Assembly: GCA_024720975.1 (NCBI GenBank)
Contig: JANJXX010000001.1
Span: forward strand, 63,408 to 127,407
DNA length: 64,000 nucleotides
Source: Thermoproteota archaeon
GTDB taxonomy: Archaea > Asgardarchaeota > Njordarchaeia > Njordarchaeales > Panguiarchaeaceae
Reading direction: 5' to 3'
In this document: positions 570-28,568 of the stretch, piece by piece
How positions within the stretch are numbered: the first letter of the stretch is position 1
How the letters are laid out: the number at the start of each line of letters is the position of its first letter
Made by a program: the position numbers and the translations under genes
The notes under the pieces: generated by a model
The model's database searches: none
Told to the model about the DNA's origin: nothing
Seen by the model: the letters and a program-made list of their open reading frames with translations, nothing else

Positions 570-1292
570 CTAGACTATGCCTAGTGCTGATAGAATACGA
601 TACTTTATAATGAATAATACTATTCTTAGACCGTCTCTCAGATACCTTATCTTGCTTTTACCGGATCTTCGTTGAAAGTATCTTATAGGAATTTCAATAA
701 ATCTGAGCTTTCTTAGAGCCTCTAACTTTATCTCTGTCGAAAATTCCATGCCAAAACTGCTGAGTACAAGCTCGCTAAGAGACTTTCTCTTAAAACACCA
801 CATACCCGACTGCGTATCTCTTATCCTGAATCTAAATAACAGGAAGACGAATAAATTAATGAGCCTGTTTCCCAACATACGCGCACTACTGAATGCATAC
901 TTTTCAGTTTTTGCAAACCGATTTGAAGAAACAAAGTCCGCACCCCCCTTCTCAAGAGCTAAAAGCATTTTCGGGATTTCACTGGGAGGATACGTCATGT
1001 CAGCATCTAATGTTGCGATGACATCACCTTTAGCATACCTAAAACCGATCAAATATGCCAATCCATAGCCTCTTCTCCTAACCACTATAACCCTCGCCCC
1101 TTTATGCAGGGCAATATTAACAGTTCTATCTGTAGAACCTCCATCAACAACTATTACCTCAAATTCATAGCCCATTCTGCCGAGAATTTCTCTTGGAATG
1201 GCCTCTATTACCTTCCCGATCGTACTTTCCTCATTGAGAGTTGGAATTATTATTGATAGGAGAGGCATACTTTTGTTACCTCGTCTTCGCAA
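570..1292 (-). CDS. GT2 glycosyltransferase (DPM1-like polyprenol-phosphate glycosyltransferase)
   Basis: LSIIIPTLNEE, VVDGGSTDRT, GYGLA, LDADMTY, DTQSG, EIPI motifs. Confidence 0.9.
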   Translation of the reverse strand: MRRRGNKSMPLLSIIIPTLNEESTIGKVIEAIPREILGRMGYEFEVIVVDGGSTDRTVNIALHKGARVIVVRRRGYGLAYLIGFRYAKGDVIATLDADMTYPPSEIPKMLLALEKGGADFVSSNRFAKTEKYAFSSARMLGNRLINLFVFLLFRFRIRDTQSGMWCFKRKSLSELVLSSFGMEFSTEIKLEALRKLRFIEIPIRYFQRRSGKSKIRYLRDGLRIVLFIIKYRILSALGIV

Positions 1293-1473
1293 CGGTAAGT
1301 GTCAACATTTTAAGATGATAAAGGCTTTTAATTGACTATCTCCATTTAGCCAATCAATACTTGACAGTTAATAGAAACACAGACCGGTAGGAACACAACG
1401 AACGAAGCACTAAATTTCTAAACTAAAGCATATGTCGCAAAGTTCTACACACTAAAGAGAGTACGTTATCAAT

Positions 1474-3420
1474 TTAGTATATGCGCTTTATAGCTAAGAG
1501 GATATAAATTGGAGCTATGATGAATCTCGATTGTCTTTTCGTCTCTGGACCTACCCTAATTATATCATACTCTGAGCTGGACAACAGGTATTTATAAAAG
1601 CTGCTGTAGTTTTCCTGCGATGGGGAAAAACTGTGTCCATCTATTTCAGGCCAGCCTGCCAAGTAGAATACTAGGTAGTTTTCGGCTAAGTATGAGCTCA
1701 TTTCATCTAGCAGATACCTTATCGTATCATTATATATTCCCTTCTTTGAAAAGAATTCATACACGAAGAATATTGAGAAATCTGCTCTTAGTTTGTATTT
1801 ATAAAACGTAGCCGCCGCCTCGTAAGAAGTAAAAACGATTTTCTTTCCATGGAACTGGTTTATGTAAGTAAATACTTCCTCAAACTCTCTTGCCATGAGC
1901 TGGTCTGAATTATCCACTCTAACGCTTTCAGATTGCCAACTGGTAGCAGTTATAGCTGAATTCGATGCTGCTAGCATTACCATCAAAGTGAAGCTAATGA
2001 TAAACATTCGAGTGTACCTACTCAAACCATATTTAGATCTATGAGTTTGTTCTGTATTGTTGTATTTGCCAGAAGGAGCAAACACCATTGCATACATTGC
2101 TTTCGTTATGACAAATAGTTCTAGCAGAATTGATATGCAGAGGTATCGGGCTTGCCAGCCTTCATATGATGTAAAGAACAAGACATTGCTAAGCATGAGT
2201 AAAATAACATACATTCCAAAGAATCTTAAATCTTTCTTTCGCAGGAGGTCGATAATTCCCGTTACTAATATGCGAAATATAATCACGCCTAGTATTATGT
2301 TCATTGCAGATATCTTAAGTAATTCGAAAAGGAGAAATCTAAATGCGGTTCTACTTGGCGGGGAGTTTATTGCTGATGTTAGTATATAAAGCGTACCTGG
2401 AAGGTTTTCTATGAAGTATCGCCAACTAAATAATACTGCAACATTTGAACCCTGCCGAGCCCATTCAGGAAGTAATGTAATAGCTAAAACCAAAGAGGAA
2501 ATCCCCATGAGAGCTAGGTATGTAAATGCTATGACGAATCCCTTCAGATTTTTCGCACTAATGATGTAGCTCCATGTAAAGTATAAAAACAAAACTAGTA
2601 ATGTCGGCCCAACTATAACTACTATGTAATTAACTCTAAGAGTGATTACATACACAAGCAATATCCAAACAAGGAGAAAATCAGAGAGCCTGTGCTTTCC
2701 TGTGGTGATGTTATAAACTTTCAAGAGTAGAAGCGACAATACCAAAAGAAGAATCGGCTCATAACTAATTGTTCTAGATATTGCAACGAACATGGGATTC
2801 GCTATTACCAGCAGTCCAAACAGATAGAAGTATTTGGATTCCTTCTTCTCATAAACATTGACTTTATACCAGGTGTAAATTATTGCCACATATGCCAGAG
2901 CGCTATAAATGATTATCGCAATTTGCGAAGCTAGTTCGGTTGGCTGAAGTAGCATAAAAGGTATTAAAGCCAAACTTCCACCTGGAGCCGCTTTATGAAG
3001 AAAGGAGTATTTTTGATCATGAATAATTTCCAGAGCACCTGCCATCAGTTCATAGCTATCCATAATTGAAAAGTGCGAGTCGTCGATGTTTAGAACGTAA
3101 AGGATAATAAACAGAATTGATAGAACCGATATGGAGAAAGCTTTATCAGCGCTTTTGATGATTTTCCTCAGGTACCCAAAGAGGTCATTTAGGTATGAGA
3201 GCCTCATGAATGCAGCTAGTAAGAGAGCGGCCAACCCAACAACGATTATGTATAATACGAATTGGATAATATCTCTCGGTAATATCACTACTCGATCGTA
3301 GTCAAATGGGTATACGCCAGCTACCAAATAGTTTATTGCACCTAATGCCAAGAGGACATGAAGCATGATGAACAAGAAAAGTGCTGTTATGAAGTACTTC
3401 ACGTCGGTTTGCATTCTCAT
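1474..3420 (-). CDS. Polytopic membrane protein, probable GT-C fold (PMT/ArnT-like) glycosyltransferase
   Basis: Many TM segments, early luminal DS-Y motif, late RY motif, C-terminal soluble domain; lies between GT2 genes. Confidence 0.6.
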   Translation of the reverse strand: MRMQTDVKYFITALFLFIMLHVLLALGAINYLVAGVYPFDYDRVVILPRDIIQFVLYIIVVGLAALLLAAFMRLSYLNDLFGYLRKIIKSADKAFSISVLSILFIILYVLNIDDSHFSIMDSYELMAGALEIIHDQKYSFLHKAAPGGSLALIPFMLLQPTELASQIAIIIYSALAYVAIIYTWYKVNVYEKKESKYFYLFGLLVIANPMFVAISRTISYEPILLLVLSLLLLKVYNITTGKHRLSDFLLVWILLVYVITLRVNYIVVIVGPTLLVLFLYFTWSYIISAKNLKGFVIAFTYLALMGISSLVLAITLLPEWARQGSNVAVLFSWRYFIENLPGTLYILTSAINSPPSRTAFRFLLFELLKISAMNIILGVIIFRILVTGIIDLLRKKDLRFFGMYVILLMLSNVLFFTSYEGWQARYLCISILLELFVITKAMYAMVFAPSGKYNNTEQTHRSKYGLSRYTRMFIISFTLMVMLAASNSAITATSWQSESVRVDNSDQLMAREFEEVFTYINQFHGKKIVFTSYEAAATFYKYKLRADFSIFFVYEFFSKKGIYNDTIRYLLDEMSSYLAENYLVFYLAGWPEIDGHSFSPSQENYSSFYKYLLSSSEYDIIRVGPETKRQSRFIIAPIYILLAIKRIY

Positions 3421-6109: not shown

Positions 6110-6397
6110 CTCCTTAGTAATTTGACTATAAGAGATGAACAGTTACGAAATATTTTTAATAAGACCTGGTTAATACATGCTGCATAACCAGGTGGTCCGC
6201 TAGACCAAAATTCTAGGCAGCCGCCGCTGCGATTAGGCTCGATGGATCCTGCATTGAGACGCATTACATACCTCAGAACGGCAGTCCTAAGCTTCGAGTG
6301 CATATGAGTGCTGTTGAATCCACACTTATAGTTATTGTGTATAAAATCAGTAAAAAGCAGAGATTATAATGAGCTCATATTCTCGAGGGTATCTTGA

Positions 6398-7360
6398 TTG
6401 ATTGGCATTTTAGGCGTCGGAAGATGGGGACAAAATCATATAAAGGCTCTAGCTAAGTTAAGAGTAGAGGGCGTCATTGATGATTTCATTATAATAGATG
6501 TCAACAAGGAAACGCTAGAGAACTTCTCAAAAAAATATAACTGTGCAGGTTATGAATCAATGAGCGAAGCTCTTAAGGCTGAGGAATTAGATGGTCTAAT
6601 CATTGCAACACCAACACGATTGCATTATAAACATGCAAAAGAAGCTCTAGAACAGGGATTGCATGTACTGGTAGAAAAGCCAATTGCCACAACAAGTGAG
6701 GAGGCATTGGAATTAATCAATATCGCTAAGGAGAACAATAGAGTGCTTATGACGGGCTTTTTACTTAGGTATAGTCCGGCTGTCCAATACATTAAAGACA
6801 CCCTCATGAAAGAACCAAATTATTTCGGTAACATATTGGCCATTCTAGCTAAAAGAATAAATCCCCGGCAGGCTAGAGAATATGATGTTGGCGTGATTAA
6901 AGATCTTGTGATACATGATATTGATCTTGTATCGTATATGTTCGAAGCAACACCACGAAGCGCTTATGCTTATACAAGAAAGCAGGAGTCTACATTCGAA
7001 ACCTTCGCAACCGGGTTTGTTGAATATGAAAGCACATATGACAAGCTAGTCTTAATATTCGAGGCAAGTTTCCTATCACCACAAAAGTTTCGAGATTGGA
7101 TGATTTTAGGGGTTGAGAAAGCAGCGCAGTTGGATTTAATGGAACACAAAGTTAAAATATATACACGAACGGATACCTTGAACCCGAGCATACCAACGGA
7201 AGCGGATGTATTATACAGACAAGACAGAAATTTTGTGGAGGCAATTCAAGGCAAGGCTGCACCTTTGGTTACTGGTCTAGACGGGTACAGGGCACTAAAA
7301 GTATGCGAGGCATTGCTTCAGTCAGCAGAAAAAGCATGCACAATCAGAATCACATTTTAA
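6398..7360 (+). CDS. Gfo/Idh/MocA family oxidoreductase
   Basis: GVGRWG, ATPTRLH, HVLVEKP, DLVIHDID. Confidence 0.93.
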   Translation: MIGILGVGRWGQNHIKALAKLRVEGVIDDFIIIDVNKETLENFSKKYNCAGYESMSEALKAEELDGLIIATPTRLHYKHAKEALEQGLHVLVEKPIATTSEEALELINIAKENNRVLMTGFLLRYSPAVQYIKDTLMKEPNYFGNILAILAKRINPRQAREYDVGVIKDLVIHDIDLVSYMFEATPRSAYAYTRKQESTFETFATGFVEYESTYDKLVLIFEASFLSPQKFRDWMILGVEKAAQLDLMEHKVKIYTRTDTLNPSIPTEADVLYRQDRNFVEAIQGKAAPLVTGLDGYRALKVCEALLQSAEKACTIRITF

Positions 7361-7422
7361 TCCTCCCCAGATTACCGGAATGGTTTTCCTCTTGCTATTG
7401 ATAAAATCTTCGGGAGATAATA

Positions 7423-8145
7423 ATGCTGCCGGACAGTATTATTGAATACGTTCATTTGCTTAAACTCATTCGAGGTGTTCTTCTCGCAAGCTCGGGTATT
7501 AATCGCGAGGAGAAAGACTGGCTGCGAAGAGCCATTCGCTGGAGGCCGGTTGGCGCTGGTAGTGAAACCGGAAAAATTTTAAAGAGGTCCGGGTTTAGCT
7601 CGAAGAAGGTGTTATCTCTAGTATATGCCTTCCAAAGCCACAAGAAACTTGGGTCACTTCTTGAAGAATGTGGAATCAGTAAGGAAATCTCTGAGGCTCT
7701 TATCCTCTCTTCTACGTACATAGCTCCATTGATTATTCTAGATCAAGAGTCCCTGAGTAATCTTTCTAGAAGGGGGCTGATAATCTCTGACGTTAAGTCT
7801 GATACTAGAATTAAGGATAAGACTATTAAACTCCACTTACGCATCGCAGAGTATTCAATGAAAGATGAGTTCCTAAGCCTTATACATCGTGCTAGAAGTG
7901 CCATTATAAAAAATCAAATTGACGATGAACTTGTATATAGAAGAAACTTCTGTGAGAAAGACGTAAGAAGATACTGGAGAATTAACCGCTCGCGGGGGAA
8001 GCCTATTGTAATTTATGTAGATCCTTTAAGAGCATTAAGTACTAAGGCTGATGAGCTAAGAGAGATCATTTCTACAAGTGAAGAGGCCGTCCTCGGACTT
8101 GGTATTTGTGTTGGTATTTGCTTGCCAAACATGATAAAACAGTGA
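7423..8145 (+). CDS. Hypothetical protein
   Basis: 240-aa ORF with SD-like GGGAG upstream; no recognised motif. Confidence 0.7.
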   Translation: MLPDSIIEYVHLLKLIRGVLLASSGINREEKDWLRRAIRWRPVGAGSETGKILKRSGFSSKKVLSLVYAFQSHKKLGSLLEECGISKEISEALILSSTYIAPLIILDQESLSNLSRRGLIISDVKSDTRIKDKTIKLHLRIAEYSMKDEFLSLIHRARSAIIKNQIDDELVYRRNFCEKDVRRYWRINRSRGKPIVIYVDPLRALSTKADELREIISTSEEAVLGLGICVGICLPNMIKQ

Positions 8146-15398: not shown

Positions 15399-17390
15399 TT
15401 AAGGGAAGTTTAAGAGCCAGTTTGCAACGGCGTATGATGCATATCCAAGGATTAAAGCTACTGTAAGACTTACTAATACGGCCTTTGCAGCAACTTTATA
15501 GCTTCCACTTTCAACCTTTATCGCAACCAATGTTGCTAGGCATGGTGTATAGTAGGCATAAATCGTTAGGAATGCCAACAGAGAAGCTAAGGAAATTGTT
15601 GACATAAATACATCATAACCCCCATATAGAAGACCTATCACACCAATCGTCACTTCTTTGGCAACAAATCCTGCGATTAATGAGACTACCTCCTTCCATC
15701 CAAGACCTATTGGTCGGAATACCACCGCTAATACATTGCCTGCTACCTCTAGCAGAGAGCCTGAATTCAACGGTATGTTGAGCAAGAGCCAAAACGCTAC
15801 ATTTGCAGCTGCTATAATGACACCAGCACGCTTGATGAAAATTAGAGATCTGTTCCATGTCATCTTTGCGATGACCTTCATTGACGGCAGCCGATATGGA
15901 GGAAGCTCTATTGGTGTCTCTATTCTAGCTTTTCCCTCGAACGTTTTAAGTATTCTAGAGACCAGCAGCGCTAGAATAAAGCCAAATGTTATGTACATGA
16001 TCAAGGCCGCACTCGCAATCAAGGGTGGAAAAGCAAGTCCTAATAATATTGCTAAAGTGATTTGTCTCGGTGGGCATTGCACAAACTGAGAGGTCACAAT
16101 TATTCTTAACCTTTCCTTGTAGGATGGAATTATCCTGGTCGTAACCACTCCAACAACATTACATGCCAAGCTTGATATCATTGGAAAAGAAGCTTTACCT
16201 GACATGTCAAACCTGGAGAATAATTTATCTAAGGCCAATGCCATCCTTGCTAGAAATCCTACGTTTTCAATAAGAGCAAAAACAAACGTGAAGATAAATA
16301 TCAATGGAATAAATGAAATGACTACCACCAAGCCACGTAGAACGCCATCAACTAGAAGCCCGCAGAGAAACTCATTGGCAGTAACTCTTAGCAGCAAGTC
16401 AGTAGCGAAAGCTAAGAGATACTCTCCTAGTATGTATCCGATATTTTCAGCAACTACTCCTCCTATATTAAAAGCTATGTAGAATCCCCCGAGGAGTATA
16501 GCTATGGATGCTAAGATGTCAAAACCCCTGCGAAGGATTATTTGATCCAGTTTTTCTGTGAACCTATCAGCTATGCTAACCTTCTTAAAAATCCGTAGCA
16601 GAATATTGTCTATCATCTTATACCTTATTGATGCCACGACAATGCTAGGATCCCTGCGATACCTCAAGCGAATGTCCTCAAGAACCTTAGTTACTTCAAT
16701 TTTCACATCTTCTGGTAGTGTTTTAGATACTTCCTCATAGTTTTCCATTAATTGCAATGCTAGAAAACGCGAAGGCAGCATTGTTTTTTCACTCATTAGT
16801 TCAACTAATCTTGAAATATACTCCTCGAGCTCACCATAGCTCAGCCTTCTAGACTTAGACGAGCTTTCAGTTAGAGCAATTGCAGCTTTTATTATATCCT
16901 TGACTCCTATACCTTTTATCGCTATTGTTCCAATGACTGGTATATTAATTATTCTTGAGAGCGCATCAAGATCAACTTTAATGCCCCATCTGTGTGCCTC
17001 GTCAAGCATATTTACAACTAGTATGACTTTATCTGTCAACTCTAAAGCTTGGAGGAGTGGGTATAAGTTTCTTGCTAATGCACTTACATCTGCAATCACT
17101 ACGATAACATCAGGCTTCTCTTCAACTATGAACCTTACGGCTACTTCCTCCTCCTCGGTGAATCCAGATAGTGAGTACGTCCCTGGTAAATCAACGAGTA
17201 TTACTTGCTTTGAATCCACTTTTATTTTAGACCATGCTATTTCTACAGTCTTTCCAGGCCAATTACCTATGCGTTGATGCGCCCCAGTGAGCCTATTATA
17301 AATTGTCGATTTTCCAACGTTAGGTTGACCTAATAATGCTATAACAACAGAGTTCTCCCGCTCTTCTGCAGGTATAATTTTACCAACCAC
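15399..17390 (-). CDS. feoB: Ferrous iron transporter B
   Basis: GQPNVGKS, GNWPGKTVE, DLPGTYSL, NMLD, gate domains, YTPC. Confidence 0.96.
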   Translation of the reverse strand: MVGKIIPAEERENSVVIALLGQPNVGKSTIYNRLTGAHQRIGNWPGKTVEIAWSKIKVDSKQVILVDLPGTYSLSGFTEEEEVAVRFIVEEKPDVIVVIADVSALARNLYPLLQALELTDKVILVVNMLDEAHRWGIKVDLDALSRIINIPVIGTIAIKGIGVKDIIKAAIALTESSSKSRRLSYGELEEYISRLVELMSEKTMLPSRFLALQLMENYEEVSKTLPEDVKIEVTKVLEDIRLRYRRDPSIVVASIRYKMIDNILLRIFKKVSIADRFTEKLDQIILRRGFDILASIAILLGGFYIAFNIGGVVAENIGYILGEYLLAFATDLLLRVTANEFLCGLLVDGVLRGLVVVISFIPLIFIFTFVFALIENVGFLARMALALDKLFSRFDMSGKASFPMISSLACNVVGVVTTRIIPSYKERLRIIVTSQFVQCPPRQITLAILLGLAFPPLIASAALIMYITFGFILALLVSRILKTFEGKARIETPIELPPYRLPSMKVIAKMTWNRSLIFIKRAGVIIAAANVAFWLLLNIPLNSGSLLEVAGNVLAVVFRPIGLGWKEVVSLIAGFVAKEVTIGVIGLLYGGYDVFMSTISLASLLAFLTIYAYYTPCLATLVAIKVESGSYKVAAKAVLVSLTVALILGYASYAVANWLLNFP

Positions 17391-17696
17391 TTACAATCGC
17401 CAAAAACTTCGTCTTCGCCTCCTATGCCGGTGCCGGATTCTATTTAGACTAAGACTCAGCGAAGTTGTAGAGATTTCCCTAACCAAAATCTTCTCAGCTA
17501 CCTCCTTAGGAAAACCAAAACGTCCTCTATAAGACTCAACTACAATATAACTACCACGGTTATTTATCAACACATAAACTCTCTCTCCTGGCACAAATCC
17601 AAGCTCAGCTAATCTTTTCATTAACTCAACGTTACCCTCAATATCCACAACTTCAACCCAAGACTTGGGATCTATTTCTGCCAGATTTCTATGCAT
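17391..17696 (-). CDS. feoA: Ferrous iron transport protein A
   Basis: KRLAELGFVPG motif; GGTGG SD before ATG 17696; abuts feoB. Confidence 0.9.
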   Translation of the reverse strand: MHRNLAEIDPKSWVEVVDIEGNVELMKRLAELGFVPGERVYVLINNRGSYIVVESYRGRFGFPKEVAEKILVREISTTSLSLSLNRIRHRHRRRRRSFWRL

Positions 17697-17888
17697 TTTC
17701 CCACCATAATATTTTCTATATATAAAAAATTTTAGGCCCATTATAAATAATTAGAAATGCCAAGGAAACATTTGTGTTGAGAAATTACAGCTTAATGCTA
17801 GCAGAGTGCGAGCGCGAAAATAGGATCTACTATAAGCAATACACAGAACGAATTAAAGCAAAAAAATATGATTACTTATAAATGCTCT

Positions 17889-26012: not shown

Positions 26013-26063
26013 GTGATGAGAAAGTTCCAACTCTGAACTGATGAAGAATCCGCGAGGCTCTGA
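26013..26063 (+). ncRNA. Box C/D methylation-guide sRNA
   Basis: C box GTGATGA 26013-19, D' CTGA 26033-36, C' TGATGA 26039-44, D CTGA 26060-63; guides of 13 and 15 nt; TATA-like GATATATA ~25 nt upstream; intergenic. Confidence 0.85.
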
Positions 26064-26585
26064 TTAAATTCCGGCTAATTTTTGACTTAGAATTGAGGTA
26101 GCCTTTATTATAACACAAAAAGATTCGGGGGTGCCAAATTTGAATACTTTTTTAAGCCTTGAAACAATTCGCATAGCATCCCTCTTTGAGCTCACCGGAT
26201 TTTCGAACAGACTCCTTATAAAAAGAACAGTGGCCCTGTATATCGATTCAGAAACACTATCGGTATGATCAGCTTCTATTGCATTAAGCTCTTCTTGGAG
26301 AGCATACAAAAGCTTCCGCAATGATTCTACTTTGTAACCTCTAATGCTTCTTAAACTTTCCTCGGCATCTCCTACTTTCTTAATGTAGTCCGCAAATAGT
26401 TTCGTTACTCTTGCACTGTAGTGTATATTCATAGACCTATATAAGGTGTAGAAAACCCTATGTTTTTCGTCAGTTTGAGCCATCATATTTAGGTGATTTT
26501 CAAGCTCTTTTATGTGTGTAAATGTATTGCTACAAACCGGACACTCCACATTAATGGCCTCTTCCGGTTGCGTCAATCTAAACAC
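26064..26585 (-). CDS. C2H2-like zinc-finger protein
   Basis: CPVC..F.....L..H........EKH, followed by a helical domain. Confidence 0.7.
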   Translation of the reverse strand: MFRLTQPEEAINVECPVCSNTFTHIKELENHLNMMAQTDEKHRVFYTLYRSMNIHYSARVTKLFADYIKKVGDAEESLRSIRGYKVESLRKLLYALQEELNAIEADHTDSVSESIYRATVLFIRSLFENPVSSKRDAMRIVSRLKKVFKFGTPESFCVIIKATSILSQKLAGI

Positions 26586-26681
26586 CAGTGTCTCTATAGA
26601 GAAGTCTAGACATTGAAAGGCCTCCGATTAATTCATTTTAGTGCATTTGAGGAGATATAATGCAATCATTTTTGCAGTTAC

Positions 26682-26902
26682 GACTGAAAGCCTCGCCTCC
26701 TAGGGCTTAGGATAATGTAGTGAGTTTTTTAATCGTATCTTCAGCGTGTTCTATTAATTTGGATTGTATCCCCTGAGTCCTGCATTATGCAGGATAGAAG
26801 TAATGCGCTTAAACCGAGCACAGGGCTGAACCTGCGGGAGCCAGGAATGTAGCTCCAAACCTCCCCAGAACCCTCGCTCTTCAGAATGGGCGAGGAAGTC
26901 AG
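26682..26902 (+). mobile_element. Non-autonomous IS200/IS605-family element (PATE/MITE-like) with omega-RNA-like right end
   Basis: TTAC immediately left; AAAG plus degenerate hairpin at left end; GAAC plus CCTCGCTC/GGGCGAGG hairpin and terminal TCAG at right end; no tnpA/tnpB ORF. Confidence 0.78.
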
Positions 26903-27284
26903 TGTTTTGCAACCGAGAAGGAATGCTTTCTAAACAGAAAGGTCATAAAAATAATGCGAGCAGAATTTGTGGGTACCTTGTTGATTATTTCAATCCAAAC
27001 CCTGAGGATATCAAGGCCTTAAATATAGGTGCCCAAGAAGTTGAGGGTCCAGCTTCCTCAAAAGTCATCCTATCAATAGATTAAGGTTCGTATATCAAAC
27101 TGCGCAACAAAGTATACCTAAATTGAGGATAGATGCCATAATTCTTTGGCAGGCCTAAGAGAAAGAATTCAGTCAGAATTACTTCTGGGAGAAAACTAGA
27201 AATATGAAATATTTAGCATTTAATTCAGATAAAACCAAAAAGCGTTGCAGGCCTTTTGATTTGTGCTGATTAACGGTGCTTTAG

Positions 27285-28568
27285 ATGCGACTGAGAGTTT
27301 GCAAGGGGCGCAATATCTTTCTTGTGGGTTACCTTAAGATAAGGGTTCTCTCTGGTACTATTGACATTTTTGGAAAAAAATTCAAGGAGAACGAAACTGC
27401 CGAGATCAAGCGATTAACCTCAGCACCCCTTGTTGCTTTAGAAGATTCTGATATTGAGATAGAATTCGGTCCTGATGGCTATATTGCTGGAGTTAACTTT
27501 GAGTTATTACCCCAGCAATGGAGAGAATGCGTCAATGAAATACTAGGATTAAAAGTCCCTGCAAAGGTCTTAGTTATAGCTGATGTCGATTCTGGAAAAT
27601 CTGGATTTATTTGTTATGCTGCAAATTCAATTCTTGAGGCAGGCAAAAAAGTTGTGATAATTAACACTGACACTGGTCAGAGTGAAATGAACCCACCCAC
27701 AACAATAGGCTTAGCATGCGTCGAGAATCAAATAATACATCTCTCCGAGCTTAAGCACGCGAAGGCTTTCTTCGTCGGTTCAACATCACCAGCAGGCCTA
27801 TTCAACAGGTCTATAACTGGTGTCATAAAAATGTTACTAGAGGCACAAAAATTGAGTCCTGATTTCATATTGATTAATACAACGGGTTGGGTTCATGGCC
27901 CAGGAGGTCGAGAGCTTAAAGAAACTAAATTGTTGGCTATAGACCCCGACTATATAGTATTCATAGAGAAAGTGCCTGGAGAGTTGGAATATCTAACGAC
28001 CATATCTAGTAAGCTAGGTAAAAGATTCAAGGTTATACCCGCTGCTCCGAGGCTAAGAACCCGAGGTCGAGAAGAAAGAAGAGATCTTCGTAAGCAATAT
28101 TATACAAAAGAATTTGAAGGCGCTAGAGAGATATACATATCGACTGACGATGTAGCTTTTATGTACTCGTACTTTGGCACTGGACTTCCGTTAGATGCCG
28201 AGGAGCTTATGATAATAGCACAAACACTCGGCTTCGTTCCGGAGTATTCAGAAAAGACACCGGATTTAATATTAATCATTACGGAGAGAAACATCCCTCA
28301 GGAGAAAACTGAGCTACTCTCAAAAAAACTTGGCAGGCAGGTAAGAATCTTACAACCATCCGCATTTGAGAATCTTCTAGTCGGCTTATTAGATGAAAAT
28401 GCTAACTTGTTGGCATCAGGCATAATAAGAAGATTCGATCCTGCATCTAGAACACTTAGTATATTAACCAAAGTGGATCCAGAGAAAGTTCGCATAATTG
28501 CTCTTGGTAGAATAAAAGTCACGCAAGAAATGGAAGAAGTCGAGTGGTTAGAGCCCTGGTATATATAA
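27285..28568 (+). CDS. clp1: Clp1/Nol9/Grc3 family polynucleotide 5'-OH kinase
   Basis: DVDSGKS, DTGQSE..PPTTIG, INTTGW, R..ERR..R, LLVGL. Confidence 0.9.
   Translation: MRLRVCKGRNIFLVGYLKIRVLSGTIDIFGKKFKENETAEIKRLTSAPLVALEDSDIEIEFGPDGYIAGVNFELLPQQWRECVNEILGLKVPAKVLVIADVDSGKSGFICYAANSILEAGKKVVIINTDTGQSEMNPPTTIGLACVENQIIHLSELKHAKAFFVGSTSPAGLFNRSITGVIKMLLEAQKLSPDFILINTTGWVHGPGGRELKETKLLAIDPDYIVFIEKVPGELEYLTTISSKLGKRFKVIPAAPRLRTRGREERRDLRKQYYTKEFEGAREIYISTDDVAFMYSYFGTGLPLDAEELMIIAQTLGFVPEYSEKTPDLILIITERNIPQEKTELLSKKLGRQVRILQPSAFENLLVGLLDENANLLASGIIRRFDPASRTLSILTKVDPEKVRIIALGRIKVTQEMEEVEWLEPWYI

Follow-up and report, generated by a model that had tools for sequence, protein, structure and literature searches.

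Described Gene-Less Elements and Their Relatives

Gene-less derivatives of IS200/IS605 elements are known as palindrome-associated transposable elements, or PATEs (Dyall-Smith et al. 2011, PMC3119063; Meers et al. 2023, PMC10055086). They often encode omega RNAs that require TnpB in trans, and the idea of stand-alone omega-RNA elements has already been published (Meers et al. 2023, PMC10055086). IS608 of Helicobacter pylori transposes by the peel-and-paste mechanism of its TnpA: insertion takes place 3′ of TTAC, the tetranucleotide immediately 5′ of each hairpin foot acts as guide for the cleavage site, and a distance of 10 nt separates the right hairpin from the right cleavage site on its 3′ side (PMC3201880). 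In the TnpB omega RNAs, or reRNAs, the transposon boundary marks the end of the scaffold, and the flanking DNA becomes the guide (PMC8612924, PMC11043419).

The stretch described here is 221 nt long and spans positions 26682–26902 of the window, which is the whole stretch of 64,000 nt that was analysed. It possesses parent-derived ends and a covarying guide-RNA scaffold but no gene, and it is therefore a PATE, an element of a known kind (Meers et al. 2023). Most probably (roughly 0.85), it is a degenerate one, a deletion derivative of an IS608-like IS200/IS605 insertion sequence that is widespread in thermophilic archaea, here likely an immobile and non-functional relic. Like the PATEs, it contains no protein gene, keeps both ends, occurs in multiple copies and retains the omega-RNA-encoding right part; unlike the PATEs described, it belongs to a hot-spring archaeal family with TTAC/TCAG ends, is degenerate, lacks partner genes in the assembly and carries the former tnpA promoter in its left part. 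As in ISDra2 (PMC8612924) and the reRNA of the IS605-type TnpB7 of Sulfolobus islandicus (PMC11043419), the region of interest spans the 3′ coding part of tnpB up to the right end, and the TAM equals the insertion motif, which is presumed for the family found in the window. The element differs from those two systems in its TAM, which would be TTAC in place of TTGAT or TTTAA, in a scaffold of unrelated sequence and in having no tnpB in cis.

Setting and Ends of the Element

The assembly is a 1.36-Mb hot-spring archaeal MAG that is 81% complete, with the window on its contig C11, and the public runs that contain the window DNA are hot-spring metagenomes. The element is located in a 700-nt divergent intergenic spacer, with a zinc-finger-like gene on one side and the gene of a Clp1-type polynucleotide kinase on the other (Table 1). 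It is preceded by TTAC, terminates in TCAG, is dense in hairpins and has a G+C content above that of its surroundings. Neither a transposase gene nor a tnpB gene is present within it; the sole frame of at least 40 aa encodes 52 aa on the minus strand (26754–26912) and extends beyond the right end. Rfam scans of the region, conducted with gathering and E-value thresholds, matched no family and gave nothing meaningful, and a tRNA scan of the same region found none; a sigma-70 style promoter scan was set aside as having no relevance to an archaeon.

Two further features of the spacer and its neighbourhood deserve mention. A TATA-containing block, TTTGAGGAGATATAATGCAATCATTTT, at 26646–26675, immediately 5′ of the element, is kept in the congener G003, where about 170 nt separate its counterpart from the kinase start downstream; this block could be a host promoter for either of the divergent genes. 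A candidate box C/D sRNA at 26014–26064 of the window shows 88% identity over 51 nt to the syntenic site in G003 (C248:4188–4238), being better conserved than the adjacent spacer.

Table 1. Positions of the element, its parts, neighbouring genes and related loci. Positions given without a handle are those of the window; (-) denotes the minus strand.
Feature	Position	Strand	Remark
TTAC	26678–26681	+	Insertion target, left cleavage site, presumed TAM of a cognate TnpB
Left-end-derived part	26682–26765	+	Aligned to left ends of parents and own paralogues
Left guide tetranucleotide AAAG	26687–26690	+	Foot of left hairpin
Left hairpin, degenerate	26691–26711	+	About 3 + 3 pairs
TATA-like box TTTTTTAAT	26725–26733	+	Counterpart of the parent's tnpA promoter
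Core of omega-RNA-like scaffold	26766–26867	+	Homologous to tnpB 3′ end in L130, L151, L157
Hairpin TCCTGCAT-T-ATGCAGGA	26778–26794	+	In covariation-supported structure
Helix GCGCTT / GAGCAC	26805–26810 / 26816–26821	+	Conserved helix
Helix AGGGCT / AGCTCC	26822–26827 / 26851–26856	+	Conserved; encloses CCTG/CAGG helix
Helix CCTG / CAGG	26831–26834 / 26842–26845	+	Conserved; enclosed by 26822–26827 / 26851–26856
AAACCTCCCC	26857–26866	+	3′ of scaffold helices
Right end	26868–26902	+	Guide, hairpin, 3-nt spacer, cleavage site
Right guide GAAC	26868–26871	+	Foot of right hairpin
Right hairpin CCTCGCTC / GGGCGAGG	26872–26879 / 26888–26895	+	Read from the sequence
Right cleavage site TCAG	26899–26902	+	Boundary; model R2 ends at 26902
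Would-be guide TGTTTTGCAACCGAGAAGGA	26903–26922	+	Flanking DNA; putative, after TnpB biology (PMC8612924, PMC10055086, PMC11043419)
Small zinc-finger-like gene		-	Flanks the spacer
Clp1-like polynucleotide kinase gene	27285–28568		Other side of the spacer, divergent from zinc-finger gene
Long copy	C26:46748–46953		BLAST / model R1
Long copy	C26:35278–35505		BLAST / model R1
Long copy	C17:587–817		BLAST / model R1
Mini elements, own genome	C5:12590, C24:45847, C24:80955, C26:7077(-), C26:50985(-), C26:54829, C28:1525		
Mini elements elsewhere, examples	L119:7461–7506, L129:6572–6617, L215:6587–6632		About 46 nt
L130 complete element	tnpA 1206–1652; tnpB 1628–2911		
L151 complete element	tnpA 197–658; tnpB 634–1947		
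L157 complete element	tnpA 6168–6620; tnpB 6553–7878		
Second cassette family	C25:41394–41624, C25:38707–38880, C11:200462–200590(-), C8:2295–2471(-)		
Second cassette family, further copies	C25:53683–53838(-), C23:98980–99060, C24:36489–36587		

The initial annotation had read the ends by the logic of IS608, pairing TTAC with AAAG and TCAG with GAAC; on re-reading of the sequence, all of its motifs were located where it had placed them, and the true tnpA–tnpB elements of relatives show like ends. As in IS608, the family inserts 3′ of TTAC, AAAG is located 5′ of the left hairpin foot, and the right cleavage tetranucleotide of the family consensus follows the right hairpin at a distance of 10 nt. 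Compared with the TCAA/GAAT of IS608, the right guide of which is reportedly GAAT, the TCAG/GAAC pair of the family has a changed fourth base in both tetranucleotides, the two changes matching each other. Unlike in IS608, TTAC is 9 nt from the left hairpin foot rather than 19, the right site is TCAG and the right spacer of the window copy is 7 nt; the sequence similarity is limited to these motifs. The left and right hairpins of the element are related to each other.

Parents and Copies

The contigs of four metagenomes, aligned to the window, gave a very high summed depth over 26833–26885 only, and this peak came from contigs of other organisms, which read ...TTTAGGGCGGGGAGGAGGTCAG and diverged directly after GGTCAG. 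A tail-pattern scan that took one genome per species, with the tail derived from these other organisms' contigs in the four hot-spring metagenomes, found the right-end tail in over 120 stretches of genomes from thermophilic archaea, including Desulfurococcales, Sulfolobales, Thermoproteales, Archaeoglobi, Thermococci, Nitrososphaeria, Methanomethylicota and others. In 125 occurrences, the flanks after TCAG are unrelated to each other, and the right-end consensus of the family is GGAAC-hairpin-AGGAGG-TCAG.

The parent tnpA/tnpB element that had been sought was found in the form of three complete elements, L130, L151 and L157, in other thermophilic archaea. A Pfam scan of the L130 and L151 genes assigned Y1_Tnp to tnpA and the OrfB_IS605 and TNB domains to tnpB. 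All three elements start with TTAC / AACTGAAAG-hairpin, after which a TTTATAAA box precedes tnpA, and their right ends have the form ...GTAGCCCCAAACCTCCCC...GGAAC-hairpin-AGGAGG-TCAG. The left end of the window element, TTAC / GACTG-AAAG-hairpin, aligns with the left ends of these tnpA- and tnpB-bearing elements. The covariance model R1 matches the parent loci twice, at the left end and within the last ~110 nt of tnpB (model positions 100–217 only); in L130 and L151, its partial matches fall inside the 3′ end of tnpB. Since the window element aligns with both the left end and the tnpB-3′ region of the parents, it represents a fusion of two parent parts, the left ~85 nt (26682–26765) and the last ~137 nt (26766–26902). 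The view of the initial annotation that this is a protein-less IS200/IS605 derivative was thus borne out, the right ~137 nt being homologous to the tnpB-3′/right-end region of autonomous relatives. An alternative derivation of 26712–26755 from the RuvC-III coding region of tnpB (alignment A5) was dropped because this segment matches the left end of the parents far better. PATEs built alike occur in other archaea, e.g., L148, L186 and L203.

A BLAST search of the element against 60 relatives returned short chance matches only; model R1 found nothing long in the class and order and nothing in the TnpB loci of the order, and a blastx search of the copies against the TnpB ORFs of the order revealed no significant coding remnant. 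In the tnpA–tnpB elements of the same phylum, 11–15 nt separate TTAC from AAAG, which stands at the foot of a closely similar hairpin, and their other end reads GAAT-hairpin-TAGTTCAA, followed by unrelated flank; as for the cleavage/guide pairs of relatives, G016 and G001/G002 use TCAA with GAAT/GATT. A sister IS subfamily is present in the congeners, with six copies in G001 and three in G002 (L229–L237). Its right end is ...GGATTCCCCGC-loop-GCGGGGAGGAGGTCAA, with TCAA and GATT as cleavage site and guide; most of its copies are found 90–160 nt from contig ends, and one is linked to tnpB.

The host genome contains four long copies of about 205–230 nt, including the window copy, as found by BLAST and model R1, and the left-end profile detected about a dozen further places, most of them mini copies of ~46 nt with a single hairpin; the search for copies proposed in the initial annotation was thus rewarded with three more long copies and about a dozen short ones that share the ends. 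Identity among the long copies is roughly 46–69% in the right-hand part, and that between the window copy and the copies in L169 (Sulfolobales) and L123 (Ignisphaera) is 69–71%; the copies of this genome are as distant from one another as the window copy is from those two, which indicates that they are old or were acquired separately. The paralogues are located in unrelated contexts, TTAC or TTAT abuts the conserved left end in most of the genome's own copies, with unrelated DNA farther upstream, and the hairpin stems vary among copies through compensatory changes. The TATA-like box is retained in all four long paralogues, the window copy being the best preserved of its kind in the genome.

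The mini copies have the form TTAC / AACTGAAAG - 6–7 bp hairpin - (A)GGAGGTCAG, and in this genome they cluster on C26 and C24. Elsewhere, mini elements make up roughly 20–30 of the 125 right-tail occurrences (12 by a strict pattern) in several phyla of thermophilic archaea. In their two boundaries, the left border and the right tail, these REP-like mini copies (TTAC / AACTGAAAG-hairpin-AGGAGGTCAG) agree with the long element. The element in the window represents that long form and has two hairpins separated by the RNA scaffold.

The Scaffold and Its Decay

Judging by homology, the right ~137 nt correspond to the part of the parent that encodes TnpB guide (omega/re) RNAs. A covariance model, R2, was trained on six foreign sequences and on none of the copies of this genome; the training set comprised the tnpB-linked L130, L151 and L157 and, without an intact tnpB, L169, L123 and L148. 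R2 matched the window at 26708–26902 with 74.8 bits (E 1e-15), the match ending exactly at TCAG, and the C26 copy with 52.4 bits. The comparison with a covariance model, which had been suggested as a check, therefore has a clear outcome: a model built on foreign sequences recovers the element, and the right region has a covarying secondary structure. In a covariation test of a 23-sequence alignment, 23 of the 44 pairs showed double-sided changes, 91.5% of cells were paired, compared with 40–58% when partners were slid by 1–3 columns, and none of 500 shuffles reached the observed covariation values; the test leans towards structure, as the alignment was fitted to the model, yet each of helices 2–5 contains several different pair types. 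The element itself folds somewhat better than its shuffles (z −2.8). Among the internal stems read earlier from the single sequence, TCCTGCAT/ATGCAGGA is supported by covariation, while CCCTG/CAGGG and GGAGC/GCTCC are unsupported by the family. The first closing helix proposed by RNAalifold, CUGAA/UUCAG, was rejected because UUCAG forms the right hairpin's loop.

The window copy keeps 34 of the 44 consensus scaffold pairs, compared with 37–43 in the tnpB-linked copies. The outer part of helix 2 and one pair of helix 3 are broken, and helices 4–6 are intact. The GAAC guide, the right hairpin and TCAG are all present, with TCAG 7 nt from the hairpin as against 10 in the family: the spacer between them is AAG instead of AGGAGG, and the loss of 3 nt removes most of the ACCUCC/GGAGGU pairing beside the guide. 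With a right spacer of 7 nt rather than the 10 nt of the family, cleavage competence is doubtful.

The partner genes also appear to be missing. The assembly contains no intact Y1 transposase gene (tnpA), and the only trace of one, at C23:26730–26885 (L222), has an in-frame TGA and is 46% identical to residues 88–139 of the parent TnpA. A search of the 81%-complete assembly for a TnpB of the parent type returned no match; the only full TnpB in the genome (C26:52139–53452, which is L004:559–1872) belongs to another lineage, with ~29% identity to the parent TnpB over ~100 aa, and the 3′ region of its gene recurs as a separate family, with seven or more solo copies, that R2 does not recognise. The element had been called mobilisable and a source of guides for a TnpB acting in trans. 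The first description is not supported, as no intact tnpA was found, the left hairpin is degenerate and the right cleavage site lies at 7 and not 10 nt, and the second found no support, since no cognate TnpB was found and R2 ignores the scaffold of the other lineage. Multi-copy IS elements evidently break these assemblies, so that little can be concluded from an absence in a MAG that is 81% complete, and the position of the sister subfamily at contig ends in G001 and G002 suggests that a cognate tnpB or tnpA could be unassembled.

As a separate observation, the C26 TnpB keeps the RuvC-I Asp and the RuvC-II Glu and has His in place of the third RuvC acidic residue (Asp); three full-length orthologues in the order (44–57% identity) have Gln at this third site. 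The lineage may be nuclease-dead or rewired.

Origin and Present State of the Element

The origin of the element can be outlined as follows. The parent IS encodes tnpA (a Y1 transposase) and tnpB, inserts 3′ of TTAC and terminates in TCAG, and cleavage by its TnpA is guided by AAAG and GAAC at the 5′ feet of the two subterminal hairpins. The deletion derivative joins the left ~85 nt, with the TATA box formerly used by tnpA, to the last ~137 nt of the parent, which encode the TnpB guide-RNA scaffold up to its precise end at the transposon boundary. The analysis shows this homology, the ends and the covarying structure. In an active system, the transcription and activity of which we infer, a transcript from the internal promoter would cross the right end, the flanking 16–20 nt would become the guide, and this guide would direct TnpB to cut the empty TTAC-flanked site, so that retention of the element would be favoured. 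The window copy is most likely a relic of such a system: it has lost 10 of 44 scaffold pairs, part of the left hairpin and 3 nt of the spacer, and no cognate TnpA or TnpB was found. Some residual function is possible, considering that this is the best-preserved copy, with helices 4–6 intact, the TATA-like box kept and a z of −2.8; since the copy is degraded and has no detectable partners, a present function as a stand-alone guide is unlikely.

The most serious alternative is that the element is a live guide-RNA gene that stands alone and is equipped with its own promoter: the former tnpA promoter would drive an omega RNA, the flank would provide the guide, and TnpB would act in trans, being either a cognate protein from the unassembled 19% of the genome or the C26 TnpB. 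Published work has proposed that omega RNAs of PATEs act in trans, and paralogues and parents alike keep the TATA-like box. The scaffold is mostly kept, and the congeners have related tnpB-linked elements at contig ends. Against this alternative, the 3-nt deletion truncates the helix adjacent to the guide, the assembly itself yielded no cognate TnpB, and the C26 protein is a distant one with an unrelated scaffold of its own. A run of TTTT at 26905–26908 occupies guide positions 3–6, two bases past the boundary, and could serve as an archaeal terminator. The guide 16-mer had four matches in viral contigs, none of them directly after TTAC and in a number not above chance, and the own genome contained no near match, so the expectation of targets next to TTAC came to nothing beyond chance in either the genome or the viral contigs. 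The only logical target of the guide would be the vacant site of the element itself, in line with the homing model put forward by Meers et al. A working guide gene is accordingly improbable, and we would give a promoter-driven one fed by an unassembled TnpB little credence. If the gene were live, this small genome would maintain a scattered set of stand-alone guides that belong to no fewer than two or three TnpB lineages.

A considerably less probable alternative to the degenerate PATE is that the host has exapted it as a leader or regulatory RNA of the Clp1-like kinase gene or the divergent zinc-finger gene. Its position in the 700-nt divergent intergenic region, directly 3′ of the G003-conserved TATA block (26646–26675), would suit such a role, but the paralogues are found in unrelated contexts, and no sign of selection goes beyond what a mobile family explains. 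The insertion is identical in samples of different studies, which fits exaptation, while the orthologous spacer of G003 is ~450 nt shorter and does not contain the element. No precise empty site is discernible in that spacer, the alignment being too diverged; no read or contig skipping the element gave an empty-site joint in four metagenome runs, and the exact empty site was also missing from the metagenome contigs, which is weak evidence. The empty-site allele anticipated in the initial annotation was thus encountered in none of these sources.

An unrelated cellular structured RNA, e.g., one like RNase P, or a chance cluster of hairpins, which the hairpin density and raised G+C content might suggest, can practically be dismissed in view of the lack of an Rfam match and the clear homology to IS ends and tnpB 3′ regions, and RNase P itself is ruled out by the RNase P RNA gene found at C11:270119–270445 (137.6 bits).

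Taken as a degenerate PATE, the locus reveals no new mechanism, and the hairpin-rich intergenic patch is annotated as a transposon relic and not as a new cellular RNA. The analysis defines a TTAC ... TCAG family of IS200/IS605 elements across several phyla of thermophilic archaea and gives its ends, a guide-RNA scaffold supported by covariation and a presumed TAM; this definition may help in the annotation of MAGs and in the mining of thermostable TnpB systems.

Other Cassettes and Repeats

The genome also harbours a second family of gene-less cassettes, in which the C26 tnpB is represented by its 3′ end, a GC-rich region of ~200 nt that terminates in ...GGCAACCACT and is followed by unrelated flanks; they share a common left end of ~55 nt with a TTTTTAAG box (Table 1). 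A third cassette with a TnpB 3′ end and RNA region is found at C27:300–660, where it is duplicated in tandem (96% over 123 nt) and a stretch of N breaks the duplication, and the identity of the first 110 nt of C27 to C24:39743–39852 suggests an assembly break in a repeat. A CRISPR array is located at C3:~16790–17880, with repeats ending in ATTGAAAG, and a lone copy of its repeat at C23:~1635–1662 adjoins a C-terminal fragment of TnpB near the start of C23.
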